From a phage: a DNA stretch of 64,000 bases. The translations under genes were made by a program, and so were the position numbers. This document shows positions 5,472-21,024 of this stretch, one piece after another (the first letter of the stretch is position 1; every line of letters starts with the position of its first letter). The notes under the pieces were generated by a model. The model was not told where the DNA came from, ran no database searches, and was given only the letters and a program-made list of their open reading frames with translations. The DNA is taken from assembly GCA_014686905.1 (NCBI GenBank), contig GCA_014686905.1_4093.1, one strand, 5' to 3'.

Positions 5472-5520
5472 ACCGAAAATCGCACTTTTTAAAGCTTTTA
5501 AAAAAGGCGATTTTATTCAG

Positions 5521-5539
5521 TACTAAATAATATCATACT
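5521..5539 (+). promoter_or_regulatory. conserved late-promoter/leader element copy A (TACTAAATAATATCATACT)
   Basis: Near-identical to the elements at 8285-8303 and 20975-20990 (minus strand); upstream of the acidic prohead-core gene. Confidence 0.5.
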
Positions 5540-5572
5540 TTATACGAATGTAATATATCTATGGAGGATATA

Positions 5573-6421
5573 ATGGCGAATTTAAAACTACTACAAGAAG
5601 CAATTGCGGCGTTTGCAAATGGCGAACAAGATATTGCTGATAAAAAAATGCGTAAGTATTTCGTTGAGCAAGCTCAAGAAATTAACAAACAACTAGAAGA
5701 AAGCATGGAAGATGAAGACGACGATGAAGATTGTGAAGTCGAAGTTAAAGTCAAAGATGAAGAAAAGCTTGACGAAGATTTTGATGTACAACCAGACGAA
5801 GGTCTAAATGCTGAAATCGAATACACCCTTGGTGAAGAAGATGAAAGTGCAGAAGAAGAAGTTGAATTCTCTGCTGATGCAGATGGTGACGGTGAAGACG
5901 ATGTTGACGTTGAAGTGAAAGCTGATGCTGATGTTCCTTCCGAAGACCAATGGGAATCAATCCAAGATGCTTTCCGTGGCCTACAACAAATGTTTGATGA
6001 AATCGGTGACGGTGAAGTTGATCTAGATTCTGAAGAAGAAGTAGAAGATAGCGAAGAAGAAGTTGGTGTTGACGGTGACGACGAATTTGCTGATGTTGAA
6101 TTCGGCGATGAAAAATTCGGTGAATCCTTCAAACTAGAAAAAGTTGCTCCAGTTGATAAGAAAGAAAAAGCTGGCACTCATTCCAAATCTCCAGTAGCAC
6201 CAGAAGCTAAATCTCCAGTAGCAGGAGCAGAGCCAGTTAAATTCGCTAAGAAAACTGACCAAGCCCCACTACTAGACCTAGATGATAAATCTGTTCTACC
6301 AAAAGATAGCCTAGATCTTGGTAAAAATGCTCGCGGTGAAATGAAAGATGTTAAAGCACCAAAAACTACTGCATCTAATTCTAAATCACCACTAAGCAAA
6401 GCACAACCTAAACTAAAATAA
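5573..6421 (+). CDS. highly acidic prohead core/scaffold-like protein (gp68-like by position); ORF could start at 5561
   Basis: GGAGG 5 nt before the ATG at 5573; long Asp/Glu-rich low-complexity region; synteny with T4 head genes. Confidence 0.5.
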   Translation: MANLKLLQEAIAAFANGEQDIADKKMRKYFVEQAQEINKQLEESMEDEDDDEDCEVEVKVKDEEKLDEDFDVQPDEGLNAEIEYTLGEEDESAEEEVEFSADADGDGEDDVDVEVKADADVPSEDQWESIQDAFRGLQQMFDEIGDGEVDLDSEEEVEDSEEEVGVDGDDEFADVEFGDEKFGESFKLEKVAPVDKKEKAGTHSKSPVAPEAKSPVAGAEPVKFAKKTDQAPLLDLDDKSVLPKDSLDLGKNARGEMKDVKAPKTTASNSKSPLSKAQPKLK

Positions 6422-6441
6422 ATATCTGAAAGGAGATCATT

Positions 6442-7065
6442 ATGAGTAGTATGATTCGTGAATGGTCTTCATTCAATGATTCTAAAGTTGTTTTGGAACA
6501 TCGTGATAATGGATTTGGTGGGCGTGACTGCTATCTTCGTGGTATTGCTATTCAAGCCGACCAACGAAATTTGAACGAGAGAATTTACCCTTTATCTGAA
6601 ATTACAAGGGCAGTAAATAACATGAACCAGCGTTTAGCTAAAGGTGAAAGCATTCTTGTTGAATGTGACCATCCAGAAACACTAACTATTAACCTAGACC
6701 GTGTAGCAGCAATGATTACTAAGGTTTGGATGGAAGGTGCTAATGGTATGGCAGAAATCAAACTACTTGATACTGCACATGGTCAGAATATCCGTAAAAT
6801 GCTAGAGGCTGGTGTAAAACTTGGTGTAAGTTCTCGCGGTTCCGGTAACGTTGATTATAATGGAATAGTTTCTGATTTTGAAATTATCACTATTGATATT
6901 GTTGCTCAACCTAGTGCTCCAGAAGCATACCCAACAGCGGTATTTGAATCTCTGATGAGTAAGTACGGATCACCTTGTAATAGTTCTAAAAAAATCACTG
7001 AATCTAAAAAAGTAAATAATTTAGATTCTGAAATATACGATTTTTTCAAGAAATTAAAAGGTTAA
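6442..7065 (+). CDS. 21: prohead protease (T4 gp21-like)
   Basis: Motifs NERIYPLSEITRAV and GVSSRGSGNV resemble T4 gp21 (NKRLYP..., GVSSRGLG); length 207 aa vs about 212 in T4; RBS AAAGGAG. Confidence 0.85.
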   Translation: MSSMIREWSSFNDSKVVLEHRDNGFGGRDCYLRGIAIQADQRNLNERIYPLSEITRAVNNMNQRLAKGESILVECDHPETLTINLDRVAAMITKVWMEGANGMAEIKLLDTAHGQNIRKMLEAGVKLGVSSRGSGNVDYNGIVSDFEIITIDIVAQPSAPEAYPTAVFESLMSKYGSPCNSSKKITESKKVNNLDSEIYDFFKKLKG

Positions 7066-7076
7066 CATTTTAAAAA

Positions 7077-7084
7077 TATAAATA
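7077..7084 (+). promoter_or_regulatory. T4-late-type promoter core TATAAATA upstream of the scaffold gene
   Basis: Exact TATAAATA 48 nt upstream of the ATG at 7132. Confidence 0.5.
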
Positions 7085-7107
7085 TCTGTATGTTGAAGTA
7101 CAGATAT
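7082..7107 (+). other. hairpin ATATCTGTA-N8-TACAGATAT in the scaffold-gene leader
   Basis: Perfect 9-bp inverted repeat overlapping the late promoter; no U-run after it. Confidence 0.4.
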
Positions 7108-7131
7108 TTCAGTACTTAAAGGAGAGAACGA

Positions 7132-8247
7132 ATGTCTAAATTAGAAAAGCTTCTAAAAGAATCATCTCTTTCTGATGAGGCAAAACAGCTAATTCAGGAA
7201 GCATGGAATGAAGAAAAGAATACACTAGCCGCAGAGATGCGTGAAGAAATGAAAGGCCGTTATCAGCAAGATTTGGCTGAACTAACCGAAGGTTTGAACA
7301 CGATGGTTACTCAAGTCATTGCCGAAGAAATGGGTGCTGTATATGAAGAGAAAAAACGTCTCGTTGAAGATCGTGTAACTCTACGTAAAACACTAAGCAA
7401 TTTCTCTGCGTTTTCAAACTCTGTTTTGGCTGAAGAAGTTAAACAAATGCGTAAAGAACGTAAGCATCTTCATGAATGCATGGGTAAATTCGTTAATTTT
7501 TCTAACGGTATCCTAGCAGAAGAGCTAAAAGAATTCCACACTGAAAAACGCCAACTAGTAGAAACTCGCGTTAAACTACTTGCTGAAGGTTCACGTCAAA
7601 TTGCTGAAGCTCGTAATAACTTCATCAAACGTACATCTGAAAGTGCTGCTAAATATATTGCAGAAACCACTCAGAAGAATCTATATGCGTTGAAACAAGA
7701 TCTAGTGGAAGCAAAACAAAATATGTTTGGTCGTAAAATCTTTGAAGCATTTGCTCAAGAGTTTAATGTCAAACAATTTAATGAAAACTCATTGCTACGT
7801 TCCCTAACTGAATCAATTAAATCTAAAGAAGATGAAATTGCTCAAGTTAAGCAAGAACTACATGAAACTGCTAATGCCGTTAAAGCTGCTAAAACCAAAC
7901 TACGTATTATGGAAGATGCACAAGCACGTAATGCGATTATGTCTGAACTAGTAAAACCACTAACTGCACAGCAAAAACAAATTATGGAATCCCTTCTAGC
8001 TACTTCACCTACTGAAAAGCTTAAAGAAGATTTCAGCAAGTACCATAAGTCAGTACTTAACGGTACTAAAGTAAATGAATCTGCTACCACTCGTCAAGCA
8101 GTTCAGTCTTCCGCTAAGAAAACTCTTGCAGAAGGTAAAGTAATCACTGGCAACCGTCAGGCTATTGTTGAAAGCGAAGAAATGACCGCTGACGATATGG
8201 CATTCCTAAAAGAACTAGATGTTCTTTCAGGTATCAATAAAAAATAA
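7132..8247 (+). CDS. 22: prohead scaffolding core protein (gp22-like)
   Basis: Coiled-coil-type E/K/Q/A-rich sequence; sits between protease and MCP; RBS AAAGGAGAG. Confidence 0.7.
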   Translation: MSKLEKLLKESSLSDEAKQLIQEAWNEEKNTLAAEMREEMKGRYQQDLAELTEGLNTMVTQVIAEEMGAVYEEKKRLVEDRVTLRKTLSNFSAFSNSVLAEEVKQMRKERKHLHECMGKFVNFSNGILAEELKEFHTEKRQLVETRVKLLAEGSRQIAEARNNFIKRTSESAAKYIAETTQKNLYALKQDLVEAKQNMFGRKIFEAFAQEFNVKQFNENSLLRSLTESIKSKEDEIAQVKQELHETANAVKAAKTKLRIMEDAQARNAIMSELVKPLTAQQKQIMESLLATSPTEKLKEDFSKYHKSVLNGTKVNESATTRQAVQSSAKKTLAEGKVITGNRQAIVESEEMTADDMAFLKELDVLSGINKK

Positions 8248-8284
8248 ACATTTTAAAGCATTTTAATAATCAAATTTTTCAGTT

Positions 8285-8303
8285 CTATAAATAATATCAT
8301 ACT
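8285..8303 (+). promoter_or_regulatory. late promoter TATAAATA (8286-8293) within conserved leader element copy B
   Basis: CTATAAATAATATCATACT about 40 nt upstream of the MCP start; same element at 5521 and 20975 (minus strand). Confidence 0.6.
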
Positions 8304-8338
8304 GAAAAACGAATATAACATCTTTAAGGAGATATATA

Positions 8339-9514
8339 ATGTCACAACTACTAAATGAATCCAAATGGGTAGCAGTAAAAGAGAAACTAGTTGAAGGTCT
8401 ACAGGGTACTCGTAAGTCTGTAATGGAAACTGTTCTTGATAACCATCGTAAAGTTATGCTAACTGAATCCGCAACTTCTGGTGCAACTACCGCTGGTAAC
8501 ATCGCTACTCTAAACAAAGTGATTCTACCAATTATGCGTCGTGTAATGCCAACCGTTATTGCTAACGAAATCATCGGTGTTCAACCTATGACTGGTCCAG
8601 TTGGTCAGATCCACACCCTACGTGTACAATATGCTGATAACGCACCTGGTGTAATCGCTGGTGAAGAAATGCTTTCTCCATACAAAATCGCTAAATCTTA
8701 CTCTGGTGATCTAAATGCGGATAATAGCAACCCACAAGCTGCTCCTACTAGCCAACTAGAAGGTACTATGGGTCGTCGCGTTAACATCCGTATTCTACGT
8801 GAAACTGTTGAAGCGAAATCTCGTCGTCTATCTGCACGTTGGACTGTTGAATCTGCACAAGATGCACAATCCCAACATGGTGTTGACGTTGAAGCAGAAC
8901 TAATGGCTGCAATCGCTCAAGAAGTTACCGTAGAAATCGACCAAGAGCTACTAAGCCGTCTACGTGCACTACCTGGTGCTGCTGCTGTAACTTATGACCA
9001 ATCTAAAGTTACTGGTGTTGCAACCTTCGTTGGTGATGAGCACGCTGCTCTAGCAACTCTAATTAACCGTCAAGCAAACGAAGTTGCTCGTCGTACTAAG
9101 CGTGGTGCTGCAAACTGGGCTGTTGTTTCCCCAACTGCACTAACCATTCTACAATCTGCTACTACTTCTAGCTTTGCACGTACCACTGAAGGTACTTTCG
9201 AAGCCCCAACTAACGTTAAGTTTGTAGGTACACTAAACAGCACTATGCGTATTTTTGTTGATACTTATGCAAGTGATGCAGAAGATATTCTAATTGGTTA
9301 TAAAGGTAATGCAGAAACTGATGCTGGTGTGTTCTATTGCCCATACATCCCACTAATGGCTTCCGGTACTGTAATGGACCCTAACACTGGGGAATTGGTC
9401 ACAACTTTCCTTACCAGGTATGGTTATGTACAATTGACTGATAGTACTTCTTCTCTTGGTAACGCTGCTGACTACTACAGCAAAATCGCTATCAAAAACG
9501 TTACTTTCATGTAA
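8339..9514 (+). CDS. 23: major capsid protein (T4 gp23 family)
   Basis: IIGVQPMTGPVGQIHTLRVQY, RETVEAKSRRLSARWTVESAQD and GYKGNAETDAGVFYCPYIPL align with T4 gp23 blocks (ICGVQPM..., VIEAKSRQLKA..., GYKGPNEMDAGIYYAPYV); 391 aa, shorter than T4 gp23. Confidence 0.9.
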   Translation: MSQLLNESKWVAVKEKLVEGLQGTRKSVMETVLDNHRKVMLTESATSGATTAGNIATLNKVILPIMRRVMPTVIANEIIGVQPMTGPVGQIHTLRVQYADNAPGVIAGEEMLSPYKIAKSYSGDLNADNSNPQAAPTSQLEGTMGRRVNIRILRETVEAKSRRLSARWTVESAQDAQSQHGVDVEAELMAAIAQEVTVEIDQELLSRLRALPGAAAVTYDQSKVTGVATFVGDEHAALATLINRQANEVARRTKRGAANWAVVSPTALTILQSATTSSFARTTEGTFEAPTNVKFVGTLNSTMRIFVDTYASDAEDILIGYKGNAETDAGVFYCPYIPLMASGTVMDPNTGELVTTFLTRYGYVQLTDSTSSLGNAADYYSKIAIKNVTFM

Positions 9515-9558
9515 TTGTAATCGATTTAAAAGATTTAATCAAGAAATTAAAAACAATA

Positions 9559-9588
9559 GGGACTCTTCGGAGTCCCTTTTCTTTTTTG
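9559..9588 (+). terminator. rho-independent terminator after the MCP gene
   Basis: GGGACTC-TTCG-GAGTCCC followed by TTTTCTTTTTT. Confidence 0.8.
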
Positions 9589-9590
9589 TG

Positions 9591-9619
9591 TTGACATGTC
9601 ACATTTTTTGTGTAATAAT
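9591..9619 (+). promoter_or_regulatory. sigma70-like promoter (TTGACA-N16/17-TAATAAT) for the inserted island
   Basis: TTGACA at 9591-9596 and a TA-rich -10 about 17 nt downstream. Confidence 0.45.
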
Positions 9620-9647
9620 ACGCGTACATTATAAATGAAGAAGAGAA

Positions 9648-10571
9648 ATGACAATGAATCCAAATGAAGAAAAATTTATTAATGCAGTGAATGAAAAGTA
9701 TGGTACTGGTGTGTATTTGTTTGATAAAATGGTATATATTAATGCTCATAAACAGGTTGAACTTTATTGTGTAGAAGGTTGTCATTATTTCAAAATCACT
9801 CCTATGCAAATAGTCCGACCTTCTGCAAAAGGATGTAACATTTGTCAAAAAAACACAGCATACACGACCGAAACGTTTATTGAAAAAGTTAAAACCATCC
9901 ATCCAACATTGTCATTTGAGAAAACTATCTACAAAAAACAAAGTGACAGTAATGGGCGAGTCATCGTTACATGTCATAATGATCCGAATGATGTGCATGA
10001 TTGGGAAGTATCAGCCGCAACATTATTAAAAGGAAAAACTAGTTGTGGAATATGTTCTGGTAAAGGTGGAAGAAGTACTGAACGTTTCATTGAACTTGTG
10101 TCGCCTATCCATAACCATAAGTATGATTATAGCTTGGTGGATTACAAGACTAGTGATGAACATGTGGATATTATTTGTCCTGAACATGGTGTCTTTAAAC
10201 AAATACCCAAATCTCATATGGCAGGAAGAGGATGTCCATCATGTGGTGAGTATGGTTATCAACCATCAAAACCTGGATATTTCTATGTTCAAAAACTAAC
10301 TAACAATGACAAGACGGTGTACAAGTATGGAATCACTGGTGATATGAAACGCCGTGTAAACGAACAAAGTCGCAATTCTGAGTTCGAGCATGAAGTACTT
10401 GTAGAACGCTACTTTGAAGATGGCAATCAACCATTACTGTTGGAAAAGTTCATAAAGAAATACATTGAAAGTGGTGTTGTAAGTACTGAAGAGTTACCGT
10501 CAGGATTTACTGAAACATTTGATGCTAAGTATCTTGAAAGTGTTTTAGAAATTGTAAATACTTTTAAGTAA
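9648..10571 (+). CDS. protein with three tandem zinc-ribbon repeats and a C-terminal T5orf172 (GIY-YIG-related) domain; homing-endonuclease-like
   Basis: Three roughly 65-aa repeats each ending C..HG.F....G.GC..C; C-terminus GYFYVQKL...VYKYGITGDMKRRVNEQ fits the T5orf172/MUG113 pattern. Confidence 0.6.
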   Translation: MTMNPNEEKFINAVNEKYGTGVYLFDKMVYINAHKQVELYCVEGCHYFKITPMQIVRPSAKGCNICQKNTAYTTETFIEKVKTIHPTLSFEKTIYKKQSDSNGRVIVTCHNDPNDVHDWEVSAATLLKGKTSCGICSGKGGRSTERFIELVSPIHNHKYDYSLVDYKTSDEHVDIICPEHGVFKQIPKSHMAGRGCPSCGEYGYQPSKPGYFYVQKLTNNDKTVYKYGITGDMKRRVNEQSRNSEFEHEVLVERYFEDGNQPLLLEKFIKKYIESGVVSTEELPSGFTETFDAKYLESVLEIVNTFK

Positions 10572-10594
10572 ACAATCTAAAGGAGTTGACACGG

Positions 10595-10945
10595 ATGTTA
10601 ACTGTATACAAATTTAACAAAGAAGAGTACTTAAAGAGTCAGTACTCAAATATAGAAATAAATGTTCCTTATGGTACGTTAGTTGGATATGATGAAGCCA
10701 CTGAAACATTGTATTATAATGATGATAGATTGGATTATAGTTTAGATTCTTTTATAGAAGATATACTAAACACACATACTGAAGATATGTTATATGAAGA
10801 ATACATAGATCATTATAGGGAACGTATGTCACAATTACACTCAGACGCTCCAGTACTAAACATTACACAAGAACCTTCTGAATTTCAGCCCCATAATCCT
10901 TTTCAACGTTTAATAGATATTGGTTTGAAATTCACTATTAGTTGA
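10595..10945 (+). CDS. hypothetical protein (116 aa; ORF opens at 10586 with TTG)
   Basis: AAGGAG 9 nt before the ATG at 10595. Confidence 0.45.
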   Translation: MLTVYKFNKEEYLKSQYSNIEINVPYGTLVGYDEATETLYYNDDRLDYSLDSFIEDILNTHTEDMLYEEYIDHYRERMSQLHSDAPVLNITQEPSEFQPHNPFQRLIDIGLKFTIS

Positions 10946-10984
10946 TAGATAAATATCTCCATATTAATGATGGAGATTGAATCT

Positions 10985-11293
10985 ATGTCACAGATATGTT
11001 ATGTTATAATAAATTCTGCATGGCCTGAGTATGTTAAAATTGGTTTTACTTCAAAATCAGAAATGACAGAACGTCTAAGAACGTATCAGACTGCTACACC
11101 ATTTCGTGACTTTGAAGTATATCATGAAGTTCATTTTGATGATGCACGTTTGGCTGAAAAAGAAATACATAAAAGGCTTAAGCAGATGAATGCAACTAGA
11201 CAACCCAATACCGAGTGGTTTAAAATGTCTAAAAAGATAGCAGCCAACATTATTGATTCCGTATGGGATGATATGGATAACGACTTGCTATAG
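10985..11293 (+). CDS. stand-alone T5orf172 (GIY-YIG-like) domain protein; ORF may start at 10967
   Basis: CYVIINSAWPEYVKIGFTSKSEMTERLRTY...EWF fits the T5orf172/MUG113 pattern; second copy of this domain within 1 kb. Confidence 0.55.
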   Translation: MSQICYVIINSAWPEYVKIGFTSKSEMTERLRTYQTATPFRDFEVYHEVHFDDARLAEKEIHKRLKQMNATRQPNTEWFKMSKKIAANIIDSVWDDMDNDLL

Positions 11294-11333
11294 GAATAAA
11301 TATAGTATATATTAATCATAAAGGGATTTATAC

Positions 11334-12944
11334 ATGAGCATAAGTTTTAATAACCCATTGGATACAATGACCAGTACTGGTGCTAATGGATCTTTAGAAC
11401 TAATAGTGCTTGGTGGTACACCAACTAACCCAAGACCTATTCGTTTTAACTCGTCATCAGTTATCATACCAGTACAAACTTTACCAACTGGTGAACAAGG
11501 TGCAATGGTCTTTGATAGAAACGAGTTAGTTTTGAAGTATCATAACGGTACTAGTTGGATTGCAGTATACGATACTGATACCATTTTAGAACCAATTAGA
11601 ATTTCACTTGATGAAGTAAATAGAAAACTAAATTTAAAAGTAGAAAGTGTAACTTATAGTAGTAGTACTGTTCCTAGTGCAAGTATTAGTGGAACAAACT
11701 TAAACATTGTATTCCCTACTGCTTCTAGTGGTGGTTCTGGTCCAACTGGTCTTTACACTTCACTTAAACCTGGTGCTATTACACAATATTCATTGACTTC
11801 TGGTCAATCTGTTGCTAGTATACGTGAACAAATGTCAGGACAATCGAATGGACAAAGTGGGAGAAACGGTTCACAAGGTGCTCCGTGGAAAACGTCTGAC
11901 GGTTGGTGTTTTGCTGATGGTATGTGGTGGCAATGGGAGGGGGAAAATGGTACAATTACCAAACAAGTACCAAACCTTAACCAAAACGCGTACTTAAAAG
12001 GGATATCCACATCAGGTGTAACTAAAACTGATAGTGTTATTGGTAGTAGCGGTAATATTAGCGGCACAGTATTAAGTGTTGCCCAATTACCATCACACTC
12101 ATTTAGTTTTAGTGGGACCACAGGGGCTGCTGGTCGTCATGGTCATAGTCAAGCACTAAAAGGTATGGACCGTAGTGGTCTAAATGCGTTAACTTCAAGT
12201 AATGATAACGGTATACCAACTGTAATCAATAACATTAACGAAGCACCAGACCACATTCACTCATTTAGTGGAAACACTAACACACTTGGTGGAAACCAAC
12301 CACACTATCATGGTATTAGTAACATTGATGTGGAACACTTTAACGTTGCATATCTATATAACATTGCTGAATCTAACGTCGCATTGAGTGAAAAAGTTGC
12401 AAACACTCGTTATGTACTAAAAACTGGTGATACAATGACTGGTTCATTGACTATTGCAAACAGTGCGTCAATTAAGTCAAATGATACATCATTAGTTCTA
12501 TATTTCCGTAACGCAAGCGGTGGTGAGCGTGCGGCAGTGTATCATAACTCTTCAAATAATACATTGAGATTACGTTCCGGTGGAGCAGAAGTTACTGTAA
12601 ACTCTTCTGGTACGTTAGCTGCTCCATCATTAACTGTTTCTAACAACTCAGCTACTGTTGGTGGTAAAAATATTGTTCGTTCAATTAACGGTACTGCTGC
12701 TGATGCTAGTGGCAACGTTACTTTGCAAATTAGTACTAATAACGTACAAAGTATTCGTTTGAGTGCACGTATTGAAACAAGTAAAATACCTGATTCTTCA
12801 TGGACATATACACCAGAAGGTGCATTTATGGATGGCGTATGGATTTCTGTTAATGGTAGTTCAGGCACTCACTTAGAACGAATTAGTTATCGCTATGTTC
12901 AAATGCAAATAAATGGTAACTGGGAAACAGTACGTCAACAATAA
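11334..12944 (+). CDS. tail fibre protein with collar-like domain and HxH motifs
   Basis: Ser/Thr/Gly/Asn-rich; LPSHSFSF collar-like motif; HGHS, HIHS and HYHG as in T4 fibre tips; followed by an assembly-chaperone-like gene. Confidence 0.75.
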   Translation: MSISFNNPLDTMTSTGANGSLELIVLGGTPTNPRPIRFNSSSVIIPVQTLPTGEQGAMVFDRNELVLKYHNGTSWIAVYDTDTILEPIRISLDEVNRKLNLKVESVTYSSSTVPSASISGTNLNIVFPTASSGGSGPTGLYTSLKPGAITQYSLTSGQSVASIREQMSGQSNGQSGRNGSQGAPWKTSDGWCFADGMWWQWEGENGTITKQVPNLNQNAYLKGISTSGVTKTDSVIGSSGNISGTVLSVAQLPSHSFSFSGTTGAAGRHGHSQALKGMDRSGLNALTSSNDNGIPTVINNINEAPDHIHSFSGNTNTLGGNQPHYHGISNIDVEHFNVAYLYNIAESNVALSEKVANTRYVLKTGDTMTGSLTIANSASIKSNDTSLVLYFRNASGGERAAVYHNSSNNTLRLRSGGAEVTVNSSGTLAAPSLTVSNNSATVGGKNIVRSINGTAADASGNVTLQISTNNVQSIRLSARIETSKIPDSSWTYTPEGAFMDGVWISVNGSSGTHLERISYRYVQMQINGNWETVRQQ

Positions 12945-12954
12945 GGAATGTGTA

Positions 12955-13470: not shown

Positions 13471-13500
13471 GACAACACGTAAAGACGTGATACAATTAAG

Positions 13501-13536
13501 TCATCTCACCGATTGTGGTGAGGTGACATTTTTTTG
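13501..13536 (+). terminator. rho-independent terminator after the tail-fibre module
   Basis: TCATCTCACC-loop-GGTGAGGTGA followed by T7. Confidence 0.7.
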
Positions 13537-13560
13537 AAAACACACATGGAGAAATACAAA

Positions 13561-13863
13561 ATGGCTAAATCTAAAAAAGAAGTTAAAGTTGAAATTCGTG
13601 ATCTAAACGATGAACAACGTAAACGTCTCGGCGATGCACTTAACAACATTGTTGTACAACTAACTTTCATTGATGATACCAAAGCATCCTTATCTGATTT
13701 TGTTTCTAGTGTTTCTGATGAACTTGGTATCGATGCATCTGATATCAAACAAGCTGCACAACGTATGTACAAAGGTGATTACTTTGACAAACAAAATAAA
13801 CTCGATAATATCGAAACTATTCTTAGTGTTACTAATAATCTTCCACAAGCAGATGATTACTAA
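13561..13863 (+). CDS. hypothetical basic protein (100 aa; ORF opens at 13534)
   Basis: GGAGA before the ATG at 13561. Confidence 0.45.
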   Translation: MAKSKKEVKVEIRDLNDEQRKRLGDALNNIVVQLTFIDDTKASLSDFVSSVSDELGIDASDIKQAAQRMYKGDYFDKQNKLDNIETILSVTNNLPQADDY

Positions 13864-13885
13864 TTAGTACTAAAATATATTAAAT

Positions 13886-13913
13886 AGCCTCCAATGACGG
13901 AGGCTTTCTTTTT
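13886..13913 (+). terminator. rho-independent terminator upstream of the DNA polymerase gene
   Basis: AGCCTCC-AATGAC-GGAGGCT followed by TTCTTTTT. Confidence 0.7.
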
Positions 13914-13942
13914 AACTTAATAAACGTAAGGGAATACAAACG

Positions 13943-16900
13943 ATGTATATCGATGCTTATATGGAACGTAAACGTACTGGTGATATTCTTCATGTAGTTG
14001 AACGTAAGAATGGTAAACGTATTCTACGCGAATTAGATCCAGTATATGAATATTATGTTGAATCCCCACAAGGAACACATAAAACTGTTTATGGTACAAT
14101 GGCTAAACATTTTGAGTTTCAAACTCAAGCTCAAATGAATAAAAGTGTAGAGCAACACAAAAGTGAAGGTCTACGTATTTTTGAAAGTGATTGTAACATT
14201 ACATTTAAAACATTAGCTAAAGAATATATGGGAAAAGGTTCACCCGATTTGAACATCGTGTTCTTCGATATCGAGACTGATTTCCATAAGAAATTTGGTT
14301 ATGCTCCACCATCAGACCCGTTTAACCGAGTAACCGCTATTTCTTTATATCAATCGTGGACTGGAAAGGATTATGTACTTACTTTACCACCTGCTGATAT
14401 GGAAATTTATGAAGCACAAGATATTGTTCGCCAACTAAATGAAGAAACAAACGATCCTAACAGTACTGTAATTTTATATACAGACGAAAAGGAAATGTTT
14501 ATGGAATTCTTTAGTTTAATTGATGATTCTGATGTTATTTCAGGATGGAATAGTGAATTCTTTGATATTCCATATATGATCAATCGAACTAAAAAAATCT
14601 TCAATGAAGCAACAACTGCTCGTTGGTGTTTATGGAATAAAAAACCAAATTCACGTGAAGCAGACAACTTTGGTAAAACTGTTCAAACATATGATCTGGT
14701 AGGTCGCGTCCATCTTGATTATTTGGCTTTGTATAAGAAACATGCTGGTCAAGTTGAACAATCTTATAAACTAGATTATATTGCTGAAAAAGTAACTAAA
14801 GAAAATAAAGTATCATATGAAGGTTCATTGGATAAACTTTACAGAGAGGATTACATTACTTTCTTGCGTTATTCTAAACAGGATAGTATTCTTCTTAAAA
14901 AGATTGATGCTAAATGTGACTATATCAACCTACACAATCGACTTGCACACAAAGAATGTGTACTTATCAGCACAACAATGGGTTCAGTAGCACTAATCGA
15001 CACTGCTATTATCAACTTAGCACATACTCGTGGTGAAGTTGTTTTTAACAAAGCACCTAAAGATGATCTTGAGTTTGATCCAGAAATGGAATATTATGGT
15101 GAAGATGGTGAAGATGAAGATGAGAAAATTAGTGCAAAAGCAGCAGGTGCATGGGTACAAGATCCAGTACTAGGACTTGTAAGTGACCTTGGGTGTACTG
15201 ACTTTAACTCTCTTTACCCTACTGTTCTACGTACTTTGGGTATGAGTACTGAATGTATTCTTGGTCAATTACGTCAAGATTACACCGATGCGTATCTTGC
15301 AGCTAAAATCCAAGAACAGAAGAACAAATCTAAATCTAAATCATTTGAACCAGATTGGACTGCGGCATGGCATGGTTTATTTGCTGCTGTTGAATTTACA
15401 ATGGTTCATGAAAAGTCAGAAGAAACATTGATTGTTGATTTAGAAGATGGGAGTTCTTTTAAAGCAACGGGCAAAGAGCTATATGATATTATTTTTGCAG
15501 AAGATAGTACTATTGTACTTAGTGCAAACGGAACACTTTTTGATAAGTCTAAGTCTGGTGTAATTCCTGACATTCTAACTCAATGGTATTCTGAACGTAA
15601 AGCACAGCAAAAAATGGTCATTGACTATAAACATATGTATACTGATGGTTGGGAGTTTAATGGCTATGAAAAAGTCGAACCACTACTATCAAACTATACC
15701 CCTGGTACAATGTTTAGAACTAATATTCATGATAATGATCCTGTATACTTACTTCGTAAAGAAATTGGTAAAGGACAATGGGATGAAGTTGCTAAGTTGA
15801 TTGTAGAAAATGGTTTAGTACTAAAAGATGGTCGTATTTTCTGTCCTAAAGAAGAAAAAGATTACTTCAAACAACGTAGTGCTTTCTGGAAACAGAACCA
15901 ACAGATTCGTAAGATTCTTCTAAACAGTCTATATGGTGCACTATTGAACAAAGGTTCTCGTTTCTTTGACAAACGTTTAGGTCAATCCGTAACATTAACT
16001 GGACGTTCTATGACCAAACATATGGCAAGTCGTATCAATGAGATTACTACTGGTGTATATAATCACCAAGGTGGTTCAGTAATTTATGGTGATACTGACT
16101 CAGTTTACTTTAGTGTAACTCATTATCTGAAAGAACAAGGTATTCCATATAATCTATCTAAAGAAGAGATTGTTGATATGTATATTAAAATTGGTGAAGA
16201 AGTTGGTGAATCTTTCCCATCATTTATGCATGAGATGTTCAACACTGGTATTGAAAAAGGTAAGATTGTTGGTGCAGACCTTGAGATGGTTGGTTCGCGT
16301 GGCCTATTCTTGAAGAAAAAACGTTATGCAATTCTGAAGTACTGGGAAGATGGGTTCCGTAAAGATATTGATGGTAAACCAGGTGAAATCAAAGCGATGG
16401 GTCTTGAAATTAAACGCTCAGACACGCCAAAATACATCCAGAACTTCCTAGAAGAGACTCTAATCGCATTACTGGTAGGTGAGAGTGAACAACAGCTAAA
16501 ACAGCGTGTACGTGAGTTTAAGGACGTATTTAAGGATATGCCTGTACATGAAAAAGGTTCACCAAAAACTGTAAAAAACTACACTAATTTAGAGGCTGAA
16601 TATCAGCTAACTGGTAAGTGTAAAGTTGGTCACGTTCTTGCTGGTATCCAATGGAACCGTCTACGTGAAGTTTATGATGATAAATCTGTACCAGAAGTAA
16701 CGGATGGAACAAAAGTAATTGTCTGTAACTTAAAAGATAATCCTATGGGAATTAAAGCTGTTGGTTATCCAATTGACTGTGTTGAGTATCTTCCAGAATG
16801 GTTCTTGGAACTACCATTTGATACTGAAAAAATGGAAGAGATTGTTCTAACTAAAAAATTAGAGAATATTTTTGGTATTTTGGATATGGATATTGGTATT

Positions 16901-16948
16901 CATGAAAAAAGTACTGCGTCAGTAAACAATGGATTCTTCACTTGGTAA
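13943..16948 (+). CDS. 43: family-B DNA polymerase (T4 gp43-like)
   Basis: Exo I FFDIETD; DFNSLYP (region II); KILLNSLYG (region III); YGDTDS (motif C); 1001 aa. Confidence 0.92.
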   Translation: MYIDAYMERKRTGDILHVVERKNGKRILRELDPVYEYYVESPQGTHKTVYGTMAKHFEFQTQAQMNKSVEQHKSEGLRIFESDCNITFKTLAKEYMGKGSPDLNIVFFDIETDFHKKFGYAPPSDPFNRVTAISLYQSWTGKDYVLTLPPADMEIYEAQDIVRQLNEETNDPNSTVILYTDEKEMFMEFFSLIDDSDVISGWNSEFFDIPYMINRTKKIFNEATTARWCLWNKKPNSREADNFGKTVQTYDLVGRVHLDYLALYKKHAGQVEQSYKLDYIAEKVTKENKVSYEGSLDKLYREDYITFLRYSKQDSILLKKIDAKCDYINLHNRLAHKECVLISTTMGSVALIDTAIINLAHTRGEVVFNKAPKDDLEFDPEMEYYGEDGEDEDEKISAKAAGAWVQDPVLGLVSDLGCTDFNSLYPTVLRTLGMSTECILGQLRQDYTDAYLAAKIQEQKNKSKSKSFEPDWTAAWHGLFAAVEFTMVHEKSEETLIVDLEDGSSFKATGKELYDIIFAEDSTIVLSANGTLFDKSKSGVIPDILTQWYSERKAQQKMVIDYKHMYTDGWEFNGYEKVEPLLSNYTPGTMFRTNIHDNDPVYLLRKEIGKGQWDEVAKLIVENGLVLKDGRIFCPKEEKDYFKQRSAFWKQNQQIRKILLNSLYGALLNKGSRFFDKRLGQSVTLTGRSMTKHMASRINEITTGVYNHQGGSVIYGDTDSVYFSVTHYLKEQGIPYNLSKEEIVDMYIKIGEEVGESFPSFMHEMFNTGIEKGKIVGADLEMVGSRGLFLKKKRYAILKYWEDGFRKDIDGKPGEIKAMGLEIKRSDTPKYIQNFLEETLIALLVGESEQQLKQRVREFKDVFKDMPVHEKGSPKTVKNYTNLEAEYQLTGKCKVGHVLAGIQWNRLREVYDDKSVPEVTDGTKVIVCNLKDNPMGIKAVGYPIDCVEYLPEWFLELPFDTEKMEEIVLTKKLENIFGILDMDIGIHEKSTASVNNGFFTW

Positions 16949-17098
16949 GGAGTAATAATATGGTTATTGTAAATGAAATTGAACTAAACTATGACGAAGT
17001 AAACGATACTTTCACTAATGAGATGTTGAATCTTACTGAAGAAAGTGTAAATGAGGCATGGGAAAAATATGTAGAATGGACTTCATTACAAGGTAAAA

Positions 17099-17398
17099 AT
17101 GATGAGTAATATATATAAGCGTATTGGTGAAGTATTAGAAGGTAATGGTATCATTAATTCTGTACTAGCATATGATAATGATGAAGAAGTAGTTCTAATT
17201 GGTGCGGGTTTTACTCGCACTGGTTCAGTGGAAGTTGACGGAGAGATTGCTGATGTTTACACTCTTGTGAAAAAGCGTAAAGTTGTTTTTGTCGATGATG
17301 TACATACATTAAAAGACTTGAAAAAATTACGCGATAAAATTGGCATGAGTTCTACAATTGATAAGCCTTATCTTCAACGTTGGAATACAAAATACTGA
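17099..17398 (+). CDS. hypothetical protein (99 aa)
   Basis: ORF only. Confidence 0.4.
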   Translation: MMSNIYKRIGEVLEGNGIINSVLAYDNDEEVVLIGAGFTRTGSVEVDGEIADVYTLVKKRKVVFVDDVHTLKDLKKLRDKIGMSSTIDKPYLQRWNTKY

Positions 17399-17407
17399 TA
17401 AAAAATT

Positions 17408-17435
17408 GAGACAAGCATCATTTTTGAGATATAAT
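17408..17435 (+). promoter_or_regulatory. early-type promoter GAGACA-N16-TATAAT
   Basis: Member of the recurring G(A/G)GACA-N16-TATAAT class; upstream of the clamp gene. Confidence 0.55.
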
Positions 17436-17499
17436 GGTGCTTGTAGTAATCTTACATAAAAACATTTTTTGATTAACAAATAAAACGGAGAATTATATA

Positions 17500-18231
17500 A
17501 TGGATCTACGCAACGTACTACGTGACCTCGTAAACACAACCAGTGGTATTGACTTCTCTTGTATTGCAGTAAGCAGTGAAGACCGTGGTGAAGGACAACG
17601 TGTATATCTAGAAGCGTACACAGATGACCGAACTCTTGTAATGCGAGCATATACTAAAGAAGATGTTCCTGAAGTTCAGGGTCGTTTTGGCTTAGGTAAT
17701 CTAGGTCTTCTTCAGGGTCTAATGTCTCTAAAAACATACAGTACCGAAGGAACCACAATCACATCAAATGTTAAAGATGGTTCAGTTAAAAGTCTGGCAT
17801 TTAAATCTGAAGATGCAAGCACTACATTTATGGTACAAGCTGAAAAACTTATTCCAGTTCAACCACGTTTTCATGAACAACCATATGACGTACAGGTTAT
17901 TCCTAGTGCAGCAAAAGTTCAGGAACTAAAGAGTTTTTCTGGTGTATTTAAATCTTTTAGTTCTCTTGTAACTCCGTATACTGAAGGTGACACCCTATAC
18001 TTTCACGTTGGTGAGAAAAACAAAAGTAACCACGTTGGTTCTCTAGCTTTTTCTAAAACTGAAGGTGAATTAGGTCTTGGTTTTGGTTATAATATTGATC
18101 GCGTACTTCAAGCATTATCTCGCGTATCTAATGCCGAATCAGTATCACTTGGTATTACTAAAACTGGTATGCTAAATGTAACACTAGATACTGGAATTGC
18201 AGTATACAAATTTTACGTAACAGGCTGCTAA
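17500..18231 (+). CDS. 45: sliding clamp (gp45-like)
   Basis: N-terminus LRDLVNTTSGIDF resembles T4 gp45 LKNFATINSGIML as recalled; size 243 aa vs 228; replication context. Confidence 0.6.
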   Translation: MDLRNVLRDLVNTTSGIDFSCIAVSSEDRGEGQRVYLEAYTDDRTLVMRAYTKEDVPEVQGRFGLGNLGLLQGLMSLKTYSTEGTTITSNVKDGSVKSLAFKSEDASTTFMVQAEKLIPVQPRFHEQPYDVQVIPSAAKVQELKSFSGVFKSFSSLVTPYTEGDTLYFHVGEKNKSNHVGSLAFSKTEGELGLGFGYNIDRVLQALSRVSNAESVSLGITKTGMLNVTLDTGIAVYKFYVTGC

Positions 18232-18239
18232 TATAAATA
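18232..18239 (+). promoter_or_regulatory. TATAAATA late-type promoter core upstream of the zinc-ribbon and GroES-like genes
   Basis: Exact TATAAATA overlapping the clamp stop codon. Confidence 0.35.
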
Positions 18240-18241
18240 AC

Positions 18242-18260
18242 GGGGAACACTATGTTCCCC
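18242..18260 (+). other. hairpin GGGGAACAC-TAT-GTTCCCC (stem nearly identical to the terminator at 61084)
   Basis: Inverted repeat without a U-run on the + strand. Confidence 0.4.
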
Positions 18261-18295
18261 AAATTAGTTTGATTTAAAAAGTAAAGGAATACAAA

Positions 18296-18502
18296 ATGCC
18301 ATTATATACATATCGTTGTGAAAAAGAAGAATGCAAACATAGCATGGAAAAAATTGTTAAAATTGCAAATCGTGATGAACCTCATGATTGTCCTAAATGT
18401 AATGGTGAAAAAACTATGAAGTTGGAAGTGTTCACTCCAGGTGATAAGGGTGCTAATCTTTATTTCCGTGGAAAATGGTTTGCAAATACTGGAGGTTACT
18501 GA
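18296..18502 (+). CDS. FmdB-like zinc-ribbon protein (68 aa)
   Basis: MPLYTYRCEKEEC...HDCPKCNG matches the FmdB-family Zn-ribbon pattern (MPxYxYxC..C....CPxCG). Confidence 0.55.
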   Translation: MPLYTYRCEKEECKHSMEKIVKIANRDEPHDCPKCNGEKTMKLEVFTPGDKGANLYFRGKWFANTGGY

Positions 18503-18503
18503 T

Positions 18504-18803
18504 ATGAAAATTAAAATGATTAATGATTACGTTCTTGTTCGACAAATTGAAGCACAGAATAAAAGTACTGGTGGTATTATTCTAGGTAATGTTGAACCAC
18601 CATGTATTGGGATGGTAATTTCCGTTGGTCCAGGTAAAATTCTTCCGAACGGACAACTTGCAGAACATAATATTAAAGAAGGTGATATGGTTGTGTTTGG
18701 TCGTTCATCTTTGAACACGCCACTGACTGAAGATCTTGGTGGCGGCGAAGATACATATTATGTAATGAAAATCGAAGAGATTTTTGGTAAGAAAAATGGC
18801 TAA
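18504..18803 (+). CDS. GroES/Cpn10 co-chaperonin homolog (ORF opens at 18441)
   Basis: DYVLVRQIEAQNKSTGGIIL and GMVISVGPGKILPNGQ...IKEGDMVVF align with E. coli GroES ([36 protein letters not shown]...VKVGDIVIF); GGAGG RBS before the ATG at 18504. Confidence 0.85.
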   Translation: MKIKMINDYVLVRQIEAQNKSTGGIILGNVEPPCIGMVISVGPGKILPNGQLAEHNIKEGDMVVFGRSSLNTPLTEDLGGGEDTYYVMKIEEIFGKKNG

Positions 18804-19521
18804 AAAGAAATTTATTCCATTTTGGATGGTCCCTGCTCACTGGGGACTTTCTGGAAAGGCAAAAGAGATAGCTAAAGCATACTACTACAATGATGATTAT
18901 GAAGCTGATATGAAAGTTGCTGAATTGACATATCTAACTCCATATGAAGTTGAAGTGGCCCAATTGGATATTAAAAAGAAATATAGCGTAATTGGAGATT
19001 TGGAATATCTAATTGCTGTACTTGATGTTGAACTAAAATATTCTAAAATTACTCGTGAACAGTATGATGTTAAAGTTCTTGATGCAAAACTAAGTATTGG
19101 AGTTATTACAGAAAAAGAATATGATATGGAAATCATTGAGTTAATGCCAGAAGGTGATGAAAAAAGGCTTAAGGCTATTGAATTTGCATATCGTTACGAT
19201 GAAATCACACAAAGTGAATATTCTAAGGAAATATACACACTTCGTAAAGAACCTTGGATTGATTTGGATGTTGTTCTTGATCCTGAAACTAATGAAGTTG
19301 AGTTTGTATTTGACTATAATGAATATTTCTGGAAAAAGTTGAAAGCTGAAGGTCATCCAGGAAATGATGAAGAAGAAATTATCGATAACTTTGTGAGAGA
19401 CTTGGGGCGTAAACTTGCTACGGATGATTTCAGTGATGATTACGACACAAAGCTGGTGAGTGCGAACGAAGGATTAGACAAGCTACCTGGTTTGCCTGAA
19501 GGATTTCGTTCATATAGATAA
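18796..19521 (+). CDS. hypothetical protein (about 241 aa; ORF opens at 18784)
   Basis: ORF overlapping the GroES stop by 8 nt. Confidence 0.45.
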   Translation: MAKKKFIPFWMVPAHWGLSGKAKEIAKAYYYNDDYEADMKVAELTYLTPYEVEVAQLDIKKKYSVIGDLEYLIAVLDVELKYSKITREQYDVKVLDAKLSIGVITEKEYDMEIIELMPEGDEKRLKAIEFAYRYDEITQSEYSKEIYTLRKEPWIDLDVVLDPETNEVEFVFDYNEYFWKKLKAEGHPGNDEEEIIDNFVRDLGRKLATDDFSDDYDTKLVSANEGLDKLPGLPEGFRSYR

Positions 19522-19524
19522 CAT

Positions 19525-19560
19525 ATAAAAAAAGGAGAGCAAATGCTCTCCTTTTCTTTT
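19525..19560. terminator. bidirectional rho-independent terminator between convergent genes
   Basis: A-run, AAGGAGAGC-AAAT-GCTCTCCTT, T-run; plus-strand gene ends at 19521, minus-strand gene ends at 19569. Confidence 0.8.
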
Positions 19561-19568
19561 GAAAAATA

Positions 19569-20258
19569 TTAAACCAATGCTGGGATGTATTGGAAAAGTT
19601 TAACACCGAAATCACCTGCTGCATCAGCAGATTGGGAACGTAGGTAAACTTCGGTAACACCATCTTTAGCAAGTAGTGGAACACCAGTTAGATCATCAAT
19701 TAGTAGACGGCCTTCTTCGGATTCAGTACTTGGTACACCTTGTGGTGATTTAAGATCTTTGTTAAAGACACCAGCACGTTCAACTAGGAAGGTAACAACA
19801 GAAGCATCAGCAATACTAACTGAACCTGCACTCAATACACCATCAGGTGCGTTGGTGAAACCAGTAACTGGAAATACTTCAAGACCATTACCTGCGATGT
19901 TAGAGGTAGCGATGATAACCGCACGTTGTTGAACAACATCGACAATACGTTTAACGTTAGTTTGTGCTGCATAAGATGCATTGTAATCAGCTTCTAGTGT
20001 GCCAAGAACAAATGCAGTTCCATCAATACGTTTGATACCTTTATCATTTAGATATGCTAGAATTTCTTCTGGAATATCAGTGTTTAGAAAACGTTGTAGA
20101 CCAGCATAAGAAGAAACTGCACCAGTAACTAGAACGTTTACGTTTCCTAGCTTACTGATAGCAATGGATGCTAGGGCGTTAGTGCCACAAAAGTAACCTA
20201 GAATACGTTCAAAGGAATAACCATTGATACGTTCAAAAGAAGTATTAGTATATGACAT
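19569..20258 (-). CDS. paralog A of a tandem pair; putative late virion structural protein
   Basis: Shares QQRAV(L/I)(V/I)(T/A)TS and F(I/L)(C/V)ER..VFNK blocks with the adjacent gene; late-type promoter elements upstream of the pair. Confidence 0.55.
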   Translation of the reverse strand: MSYTNTSFERINGYSFERILGYFCGTNALASIAISKLGNVNVLVTGAVSSYAGLQRFLNTDIPEEILAYLNDKGIKRIDGTAFVLGTLEADYNASYAAQTNVKRIVDVVQQRAVIIATSNIAGNGLEVFPVTGFTNAPDGVLSAGSVSIADASVVTFLVERAGVFNKDLKSPQGVPSTESEEGRLLIDDLTGVPLLAKDGVTEVYLRSQSADAAGDFGVKLFQYIPALV

Positions 20259-20272
20259 AATCTATCCTCCTA

Positions 20273-20872
20273 TTATAGTTGAACAGGAAGAGCAGCACGT
20301 ACTTTAATTGCTACAGCAGTAGATGCACCTGCATCACCAACACCATCAGTACCTTGACTTACGAAAGTTTTGGTACGGAAAACTTTAGCTTGAGCGATAG
20401 ACTTAGCTAGGTCAACAGTTGGATCAACTGGAGCAGGACATGCTGAACCAGGACGAACTTCTTGCTTGTTAAATACGTCTTGACGTTCACAGATGAAAGT
20501 CAATGCAACAGAATTAGCACCACCTGCTACATCAGCACCACTAGTACCGAACGCAACTACGTTTGGATTAGCATTTTTGAAATCAGCAGGAATAACAACT
20601 TCTGAATCAAGAGCTAGTAGAGAGGTAGTAACTAGAACTGCACGTTGTTGTAGTAGTTGGGTAACCATGAATAGGTTATATTGAGCATTACTTAGAGCAG
20701 TTTGATACGCTTCAGCTTGAACATCAGAACCGTCAGAAGTAACTTTGGTAGTACCTAGTTCAACATCAGTTGGTAGATCGATTACGATGGTAACGAAACC
20801 GTTATTACCACCCCACCATTCGCGAGCAACGCTAGACATACCATAGTTACGGTTAAAAGAATTAAGACTCAT
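20273..20872 (-). CDS. paralog B of a tandem pair; putative late virion structural protein
   Basis: Paralogous to 19569-20258; GGAGA RBS on the minus strand; ATAAATAA elements upstream. Confidence 0.55.
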   Translation of the reverse strand: MSLNSFNRNYGMSSVAREWWGGNNGFVTIVIDLPTDVELGTTKVTSDGSDVQAEAYQTALSNAQYNLFMVTQLLQQRAVLVTTSLLALDSEVVIPADFKNANPNVVAFGTSGADVAGGANSVALTFICERQDVFNKQEVRPGSACPAPVDPTVDLAKSIAQAKVFRTKTFVSQGTDGVGDAGASTAVAIKVRAALPVQL

Positions 20873-20974
20873 GAAAATCTCCTTGTCAAATTTTGTGCAG
20901 GTATATCCTGCTTAAAGTTATTTATCAAAAAATATCACTAGCATTTAAATTTACTGAGATATTTAATGAATTTC

Positions 20975-20990
20975 TATGATATTATTTATC
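20975..20990 (-). promoter_or_regulatory. conserved late-promoter/leader element copy C (GATAAATAATATCATA on the minus strand)
   Basis: Same 15-nt core as at 8287 and 5523; a second ATAAATAA lies about 50 nt upstream of the minus-strand start. Confidence 0.5.
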
Positions 20991-20995
20991 AAATC

Positions 20996-21024
20996 TGGGA
21001 AAGTGATTCAAGATGTGCTATAAT
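20996..21024 (+). promoter_or_regulatory. extended -10 promoter TGTGCTATAAT for the FEN gene
   Basis: TGnTATAAT at 21016-21024; weak -35. Confidence 0.5.

Follow-up and report, generated by a model that had tools for sequence, protein, structure and literature searches.

A candidate T4-type late-promoter element, with its start-site region, before head and virion genes of an Asteriusvirus jumbo phage

The subject of this report is a TAAATA-containing element that precedes head genes and a pair of minus-strand genes in a stretch of phage DNA of 64,000 nucleotides (contig GCA_014686905.1_4093.1 of the GenBank assembly GCA_014686905.1), which was analysed over its whole length and is called here the window. 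At three sites, denoted A (before the core protein gene), B (before the gene of the major capsid protein, MCP) and C (before the minus-strand pair), the element is extended by the same additional bases. We argue that it probably represents the recognition box together with the start-site region of T4-type late promoters in Asteriusvirus. As judged from sequence identity, the window is, indeed, Asteriusvirus DNA and belongs to a jumbo coliphage of the RaK2-like group: its bases 5200-9600 share 99.9% identity with the Escherichia coli jumbo phages vB_Eco_slurp01, vB_EcoM_G17 and Sharanji, and about 99% with PBECO4 and 121Q. Genome-wide counts were made on EC22.5-2, a near-identical phage with a complete genome of 351,992 bp (loci L002-L009) that includes the window. 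The comparative set consisted of 80 MCP loci from IMG/VR (L010-L022 below) and of five GenBank relatives, namely Ec-M-J, A4, RaK2, CBB and Serratia phage BF.

Placement and avoidance of the TAAATA box

The hexamer TAAATA occurs in the EC22.5-2 genome at 0.31 of the frequency expected from a first-order Markov model, and 31% of its copies are intergenic in a genome of which 7.4% is intergenic (5.4% in the window). Five control hexamers of equal composition are found at 0.84-1.07 of expectation. The longer forms behave in the same way: ATAAATA was observed 52 times versus 236 expected, with 27 of the 52 copies intergenic, and TATAAATA 14 times versus 68 expected, with 10 of the 14 intergenic. 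Furthermore, 50 of the 51 intergenic VTAAATA sites (V = A/C/G) face the start of a gene on the same strand within 210 nt. In the closer relatives, TAAATA is kept at the orthologous positions before the 75-amino-acid (aa), core, scaffold, MCP, tail-fibre and pair genes, with diverged flanks around it. The hexamer is under selection as a signal in the Asteriusvirus genome.

The window holds seven copies of TATAAATA. Those that the preliminary description had placed at 7077, 8286, 18232 and 62578 (plus strand) lie exactly there; the others are at 1126-1119 (minus) and, inside open reading frames (ORFs), at 29504 (plus) and 51035 (minus). The five intergenic copies are each located 34-56 nt 5' of a same-strand gene. 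The raw number of copies had to be discarded as an indicator, with seven in the window versus about 10 in shuffled sequences, so that the signal of this octanucleotide resides in its placement and its genome-wide avoidance. The genes served by the boxes encode the MCP, the scaffold, the core protein, the baseplate hub, a tail fibre, virion proteins and a spanin, the virion assignments being supported by mass spectrometry of CBB virions. On statistical and comparative grounds, the intergenic (A/C/G)TAAATA sites appear to make up a well-supported and usable map of candidate late promoters for Asteriusvirus.

The architecture of these sites can be compared with that of the T4 late promoters, which consist of an 8-bp box about one helical turn 5' of the start and an AT-rich melting segment, with no -35 element (PMC2988020). 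Over all candidate sites, the upstream positions carry at most 0.34 bits, with a weak T-rich bias only; because they are so nearly devoid of information, there is no -35 element here either. The downstream positions are dominated by A and T. The boxes are found 11-110 nt before start codons, which is compatible with a box one helical turn 5' of the transcript end. A reading of these promoters as sigma-70 ones was rejected after a scan with the consensus, which detected nothing sigma-70-like at 5521 or 8286. Two further candidate parts also failed. A fixed -35-like box, TTAAAGC, 28 nt 5' of TAAATA at sites A, B and C was rejected because the spacing is 15-16 nt in the MCP promoters of relatives; at site A this box is the loop of a hairpin, and at site C its sequence (TTATAGCACA), read on the other strand, gives TGTGCTATAAT, which serves the divergent RNase H promoter as extended -10; this explains why site C seems to resemble sites A and B in its upstream region. 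CAGTAC, found just before TAAATA, was dismissed because AGTACT is hugely abundant throughout the genome.

By analogy with T4, the host RNA polymerase core carrying a gp55-like sigma factor would recognise (A/C/G)TAAATA, the best copies being TATAAATA, at about -13 to -6. No -35 contact would be involved; ATATC (-5 to -1), the next five AT-rich bases, would melt, and transcription would start at the A of CATA, namely at 5535, 8299 and 20977. The resulting leaders would be short, unstructured and AU-rich and would end in strong Shine-Dalgarno (SD) sites. In a small subclass of late promoters, probably one of high output, the extra bases (ATATC|ATAC) would then cover positions -5 to +5; they would not constitute a separate RNA element. 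It is from this analogy that start sites, late timing, promoter strength and dependence on the gp55-like protein are all predicted.

Extra bases, leaders and the cassette at sites A and B

The identity between the three sites is exact. The sequence AAATAATATCATACT occurs at both 5525 and 8289, within a 16-nt block TAAATAATATCATACT that is the same at sites A and B, and the 15-mer ATAAATAATATCATA at 8287-8301 (site B) is the same as that at 20989-20975 on the minus strand (site C), so that the '15 of 15' match of the preliminary description holds. The variant core that it had noted at site A is real and reads ACTAAATA; its position, 5521, was one base early. In the entire EC22.5-2 genome, the 14-mer TAAATAATATCATA is found three times, and these are the sites A, B and C of the window. 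Hence the conservation of a longer element at these sites is confirmed, and a genome-wide search for more copies yielded only a shorter one, CTAAATAATATCATC, outside the window and 27 nt before an Rz-like spanin gene. With the spanin site included, ATATCAT directly follows TAAATA at 4 of the 68 candidate late sites, which is reached by 0.04% of column shuffles. Being not general, the octamer marks a small promoter subclass, found before the genes of the capsid protein and the acidic core protein, those of the abundant virion pair and that of the spanin.

The age of this likeness can be judged from the relatives. TAAATA before the MCP gene is kept in L010-L022 and in the five GenBank relatives, the leader of site B following the pattern TAAATA-A-NNN-(C/T)ATAC-N-GAAAA...ATCTTTTAAGGAGAT across the clade; more generally, relatives keep TAAATA-A-N(2-3)-CATAC at sites A and B. 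In more distant relatives, the core of site A reads ATAAATA. At site C, TAAATA is kept in six phages and the bases after the box drift (ATAGCATA, ATTGCACA, TTTGCATA, TTATTATG), so that the perfect three-way identity is lineage-specific and superimposed on an older, looser resemblance.

It had been suggested that the extra bases might be a leader RNA or a regulatory site. The former suggestion is not supported, since by T4 geometry half of these bases lie upstream of the start. The leaders of sites A, B and C (distal promoter) and of the spanin site fold no better than shuffled sequences (z from -0.3 to +1.0; -0.2 to -0.3 for the leader of site A), and in Rfam no family reached the gathering threshold anywhere in the window, nor was there a relevant hit at E-values up to 1. 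A structured leader or riboswitch was therefore rejected; the extra bases straddle the predicted start. A role of the extra bases as a regulatory site is possible.

Sites A and B are alike far beyond the shared block, over about 90 nt on both sides of the box. With TAAATA excluded, their flanks make the best non-trivial pair of 2,278 (score 36, with a mean of 14.1 and a standard deviation of 3.05, i.e. 7 standard deviations), and these are the only two sites that share flanks on both sides. Just 5' of site A, after the 75-aa gene, there is an A/U-rich hairpin followed by UUUUAUU, with a folding free energy (dG) of -12.5 kcal/mol and z of -3.3; its stem is kept in 13 relatives, 5 of its 16 pairs having changes on both sides. 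The hairpin probably acts in weak termination or in the stabilisation of a 3' end. Its loop holds the box TTTTTAAAGC, resembling the sequence upstream of site B; there, the G-C clamp has been lost and nothing folds (dG 0), so only the hairpin of site A is foldable. Sites A and B would seem, from these comparisons, to be two copies of one terminator-promoter-leader cassette. The score of the A-B flanks is 36-40 in the window and Ec-M-J versus 19-23 in RaK2, CBB, Serratia phage BF, L010 and L013. At the same time, site A of RaK2 scores 30 against site B of the window, higher than against its own site B, which makes the A-B likeness older than the genus. The copies may possibly have been re-homogenised in the lineage of the window; a clade-wide concerted evolution of the two sites is not supported, because A-B scores within a genome are not generally above those between genomes.

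Cassettes of this kind recall the mobile regulatory PeSL (promoter-early stem-loop) cassettes of T4-type phages, reportedly described by Arbiol, Comeau and Krisch in 2010. The likeness lies in short intergenic combinations of a stem-loop and a promoter that recur between genes, sites A and B resembling two copies of such a unit. However, PeSLs carry early sigma-70 promoters in many copies, whereas here the promoter is a late one, with two full copies and no evidence of mobility. A separate set of at least seven near-identical cassettes is found outside the window, on the minus strand of EC22.5-2 at about 6.7-22 kb, before small genes; they consist of a terminator hairpin (GCCAGTAC...GTACTGGC), TATTAAATATAGTATAATG and a ribosome-binding site and resemble early cassettes of the PeSL type.

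The minus-strand pair possesses two tandem late boxes, of which the distal one, P1, is the site of the preliminary description. Relatives retain the hairpin of the proximal promoter, P2, and that of RaK2 shows a compensatory change (GTAAG/CTTAC). The proposal that the two genes are paralogues encoding virion proteins is supported: both belong to the same protein family (Table 1), and in CBB the products of the orthologues, CBB_270 and CBB_271, were identified in purified virions by tandem mass spectrometry with electrospray ionization, with 91% and 56% coverage, among the highest of that study. Late timing of the pair is expected by analogy. A structure model of the pair protein (pLDDT 79) predicts a ferredoxin-like sandwich, a generic fold that gave only uninformative matches, and a search of IMG/VR with this protein matched only 121Q and RaK2. 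CBB_254, the orthologue of the acidic core protein, was also detected in CBB virions.

Transcription machinery and alternative explanations

In T4, TATAAATA is read by gp55 together with gp33 and the gp45 sliding clamp (Geiduschek and Kassavetis 2010, PMC2988020). A gene for a gp55-like sigma factor of 279 aa, G17_00333, is located some 5.5 kb left of where the window begins (L001 3481-4320) and is annotated as a sigma factor in G17. Its product matches PHROG 12791 and PHROG 234, both of which are matched by T4 gp55 as well; with a profile of 17 homologues, T4 gp55 (7d7c_F) is the only match in the Protein Data Bank (PDB; E 3e-7), and hhalign of this family with T4 gp55 gives a probability of 91%. 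Single-sequence phmmer and Pfam searches with the protein gave no match. The gene order sigma, SbcD-like, SbcC-like resembles that of the T4 genes 55, 47 and 46. In CBB, similarly, a gp55-like sigma factor has been reported, and no gp33 or gp45 was found (PMC5259590); this disagrees with the report of gp33 orthologues in 'group 2' jumbo phages. The gp55/gp33-type transcription that had been postulated is thus supported as regards gp55, a homologue of which was found, but not as regards gp33, which had no match among all ORFs of the genome.

Several points weigh against a T4-type assignment. A phmmer search with T4 gp33 against 3,008 ORFs of at least 40 aa is a weak method for this fast-evolving protein and gave no match; neither did a search for T4 gp45 among all genome ORFs. 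Compared with T4 gp55, the gp55-like protein carries about 125 additional aa, inserted after the N-terminal helix, and its C-terminus (...MIERKNEDGSV) contains no LDFLY-type motif and no hydrophobic clamp-binding tail of the T4 kind. Given the lack of a detectable gp33 or gp45 and the remodelled gp55-like protein, the activation mechanism of T4 may not apply. A literature search for transcript mapping in RaK2-like phages found no 5'-end or time-course data, so that the start sites and the labels 'late' and 'strong' rest on analogy. As to the extra bases, the positions after TAAATA carry little information across all candidate sites, and therefore ATATCATA is not required for promoter function. 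Finally, CBB_254, the orthologue of the site-A gene, was covered to only 15% in CBB virions and hence fits poorly with a rule that the subclass serves the most abundant proteins; the spanin is not an abundant protein either.

The clamp loader gp44 is present in the genome, and the clade may employ a divergent clamp and a different tether. A hunt for C-terminal clamp motifs produced no candidates. The DNA polymerase ends, at 16910-16948, in ...NNGFFTW and a small ORF of a 'DNA polymerase' family (EC22.5-2 289128-289646) in ...NEFLKW; these ends may be the clamp-binding tails of the clade.

How, then, could the identity of the extra bases be explained other than by a start-site region? It might have no function of its own, the two A-B cassette copies having been homogenised by recombination or gene conversion and site C and the spanin site having converged on a similar background. 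This we consider unlikely but worth keeping in mind: the higher A-B score in the window and Ec-M-J, the affinity of RaK2 site A to site B of the window and the decayed, non-folding likeness of the site A hairpin upstream of site B all speak in its favour, and, since phage A4 reads ATAACATA at site B and ATAGCATA at site C, one substitution at each would yield the identity seen in the window. However, at sites A and B most relatives, including lineages with diverged flanks, keep CATA(C) with a constant spacing to TAAATA, the presence of ATATCAT at four sites is unlikely to result from drift alone, and gene conversion has left no clade-wide signature in the A-B scores. Very improbable, in our opinion, is an action of the conserved bases in RNA, as a shared 5' leader aiding the translation or stability of the most needed late mRNAs. 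The leaders of A and B are, indeed, alike over their full length, including ACGAATRTAAYAT, ATCT and the start region GGAG-ATATAATG, likewise in CBB, and being unstructured and AU-rich they would favour ribosome loading; but a transcript would contain only about 5 of the 8 extra shared bases, the likeness of site C and the spanin site to A and B ends at +3 to +5, the distal leader of site C is 105 nt long and unrelated in sequence, and structure, covariation and Rfam matches are all lacking.

That only four promoters carry the motif would also suit a separately regulated subclass in which the extended sequence binds an accessory late factor, either a DsbA-like protein or the extra domain of the gp55-like protein. 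The sites of T4 DsbA overlap late promoters (Gansz et al. 1991, as cited in PMC2988020), and the window encodes a possible counterpart: the acidic 100-aa product of ORF 13561-13863, between the tail-fibre assembly and DNA polymerase genes, falls into PHROG 639 (E 1.3e-7), the family of T4 DsbA (E 2e-40). The insertion in the gp55-like protein, with none in T4 gp55, would provide the other candidate. We give such a factor only a slim chance: the ORF product has no Pfam Phage_DsbA match, hhalign of its 14-sequence profile against T4 DsbA gives 1.3%, and the same profile finds no relevant PDB match; T4 DsbA itself binds weakly and showed no effect in vitro (PMC2988020); and the motif is unstable across relatives at site C. 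The resemblance to the DsbA system thus comprises an A/T-rich sequence overlapping a few late promoters and a weak, PHROG-level relative in the window, the difference being that the homology of this ORF is unconfirmed. Similarly doubtful is the notion that TAAATAATATCATA and the upstream box shared by A and B define a distinct, separately controlled late class, for head, abundant virion and lysis genes, read by contacts other than those of T4 gp55; such contacts would come from the insertion of the gp55-like protein or from the DsbA-like protein and would replace the missing gp33/gp45 clamp activation.

Sites, neighbouring features and known systems

The T4-like head module occupies bases 3431-9514 of the window; 3' of it come homing-endonuclease-like genes, tail-fibre genes, the DNA polymerase gene and then the minus-strand virion pair. 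The individual sites and genes are listed in Table 1.

Table 1. Promoter sites and associated features of the window. Porf names are those of the CBB promoters in PMC5259590 (Porf_271: Table S7).
Feature	Position	Strand	Remarks
TATAAATA before baseplate-hub gene (248-1084, -)	1119-1126	-	back to back with CATAAATA at 1175-1182 (+)
CATAAATA before gene of 734-aa virion protein	1175-1182	+	divergent pair corresponds to Porf_250/Porf_251
Portal	3431-5170		
CATAAATA before 75-aa gene	5172-5179	+	strong stem-loop next (dG -18.4, z -4.0); conserved in relatives
75-aa protein gene	5244-5471	+	preceded by late box at 5172
A/U-rich hairpin, then UUUUAUU	5476-5514	+	terminator-like
Site A core ACTAAATA	5522-5529	+	before core protein gene; CTAAATA variants among published CBB late promoters
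Site A 16-nt block	5524-5539	+	predicted start A5535; 38-nt leader, SD GGAGG 5563-5567, ATG 5573
Acidic virion/core protein	5573-6421	+	282 aa, isoelectric point 4.06, 87 Asp+Glu; PHROG 15696, virion structural protein
Prohead protease	6442-7065		
TATAAATA before scaffold gene	7077-7084	+	inverted repeat ATATCTGTA...TACAGATAT directly 3'; Porf_256
Scaffold	7132-8247	+	preceded by late box at 7077
Site B core TATAAATA	8286-8293	+	before MCP gene
Site B 16-nt block	8288-8303	+	predicted start A8299; 40-nt A-rich leader, SD AAGGAG 8326-8331, ATG 8339
MCP (gp23-like)	8339-9514	+	PHROG 138; annotation in relatives
AATAAATA before tail-fibre gene (11334-12944)	11295-11302	+	conserved in 6 of 6 phages compared; Porf_260
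TATAAATA overlapping stop codon of ORF 17500-18231	18232-18239	+	abuts terminator hairpin; doubtful promoter
Paralogous virion structural protein genes	20273-20872 and 19569-20258	-	BLASTP E 8e-9; both PHROG 9326
Site C proximal promoter P2, GATAAATA (20926-20919) and hairpin GCAGGATATACCTGC	20896-20926	-	predicted start A20913; corresponds to Porf_271
Site C distal promoter P1, GATAAATAATATCATA	20975-20990	-	predicted start A20977, 105 nt before ATG at 20872
TGTGCTATAAT, extended -10 of divergent RNase H promoter	21014-21024	+	reverse complement is the box TTATAGCACA upstream of site C
TATAAATA before gene running off window end	62578-62585	+	806-aa virion structural protein in full genome, PHROG 13911
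Second promoter type	17399-17499, 20995-21039, 26227-26418, 31487-31541, 36336-36390, 59013-59107		see text

The box at the scaffold promoter is kept at the same position in all relatives checked. The one at 18232, which had been listed as a late-promoter core, is doubtful as a promoter, because it occurs only in the window and its closest relative, Ec-M-J (A4, RaK2, CBB and Serratia phage BF are without it), and is continued directly by a terminator hairpin. Stem-loops are found within a few bases of several late boxes (5191-5218, 7084-7110, 18241-18261 and 10956-10976, and 20896-20912 on the minus strand), the z-score of folding being below -2 at 7 of 47 late sites; the late mRNAs of those sites would, therefore, begin with a 5' hairpin. 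The promoters bearing ATATCAT are without such post-box hairpins.

Other promoters and sequence features of this DNA deserve mention in their own right. A second promoter type precedes replication and recombination genes; its extended -10 (TGNTATAAT) is accompanied by G(A/G)GACA some 12-13 nt upstream, and it resembles the 'TGAAACG + TATAAT' class of CBB and GAP32 (PMC5259590). The palindrome AGTACT is 8-9 times over-represented, with 919 sites in 352 kb versus about 100-120 expected, and is the commonest palindromic hexamer. The window contains 99 copies, e.g. at 5518-5523 and 7112-7117; they are found in intergenic DNA as well as in each of the three reading frames, C being favoured before and G after the hexamer. 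Its excess is also seen in the loci of about 19 kb from RaK2, CBB, Serratia phage BF, A4 and Ec-M-J (28-46 copies each), and a literature search for this excess found no mention of it. At least 15 palindromic hexamers that contain G+C are absent from the 352-kb EC22.5-2 genome, including GCTAGC, GAGCTC, CTGCAG, CTCGAG, CCATGG, AGGCCT, AGCGCT and CGTACG, as would be expected if restriction sites were strongly avoided. Immediately 3' of the MCP gene there are an HNH endonuclease gene (9648-10571) and a T5orf172-type homing-endonuclease-like gene (10985-11293), the stretch 9648-11293 being variable among relatives: in CBB and Serratia phage BF, a shorter, different ORF replaces the HNH gene. Finally, bases 50001-52000 have the lowest G+C content of the window (0.297), with reversed GC and AT skew, minus-strand ORFs, weak ribosome-binding sites and long gaps; they contain the intragenic TATAAATA at 51035.

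As compared with known systems, the proposed late promoters resemble in organisation those of T4, with which they share an 8-bp TATA-like box, the lack of a -35 element, an AT-rich downstream segment, location before virion and lysis genes on either strand and a gp55 homologue; the order of the head genes (portal, small protein, core protein, protease, scaffold, MCP) is T4-like, too. They differ from the T4 promoters in a box that is looser at its first two positions (ATAAATA, CTAAATA, GTAAATA), and the phage differs in its gp55-like protein, which has the insertion and no clamp motif, and in that gp33 and gp45 are undetectable. The late promoters of phage Aeh1 have a/gC at -13/-12 (PMC2988020), and ACTAAATA at site A shows the same two-base departure from TATAAATA; in Aeh1, however, this is the genome-wide consensus, whereas here it is a minority form, with 14 intergenic CTAAATA versus 27 ATAAATA. 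In CBB, Buttimer et al. (2017) found, by MEME, a T4-like ATAAATA late motif at 35 sites, noting it also in GAP32 (PMC5259590). The sites of CBB and GAP32 resemble those described here in the CTAAATA and GTAAATA variants, the A/T-rich downstream sequence and the location before structural genes (PMC5259590, Table S7), and orthologous sites are listed for CBB before the scaffold, tail-fibre, baseplate and pair (P2) genes. Yet Table S7 contains no promoters of the MCP, CBB_254 or the pair (P1), no octamer and no A-B cassette, and CBB is a member of another genus. Thus, this kind of promoter has already been predicted in sister genera, whereas the octamer-sharing subclass and the duplicated cassette of about 90 nt are new.

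Taken together, these data provide a map of candidate late promoters of a jumbo coliphage, in which the predicted starts of the capsid gene, the core gene and the abundant virion genes can be put to the test. The octamer is a small detail of this map, mainly useful for strong late-expression cassettes or reporters in phages that are therapeutic candidates. More generally, a T4-like late box appears to survive in phages where gp55 has been remodelled and gp33 and gp45 are undetectable, which raises the question of how late transcription would be activated without the sliding-clamp tether.

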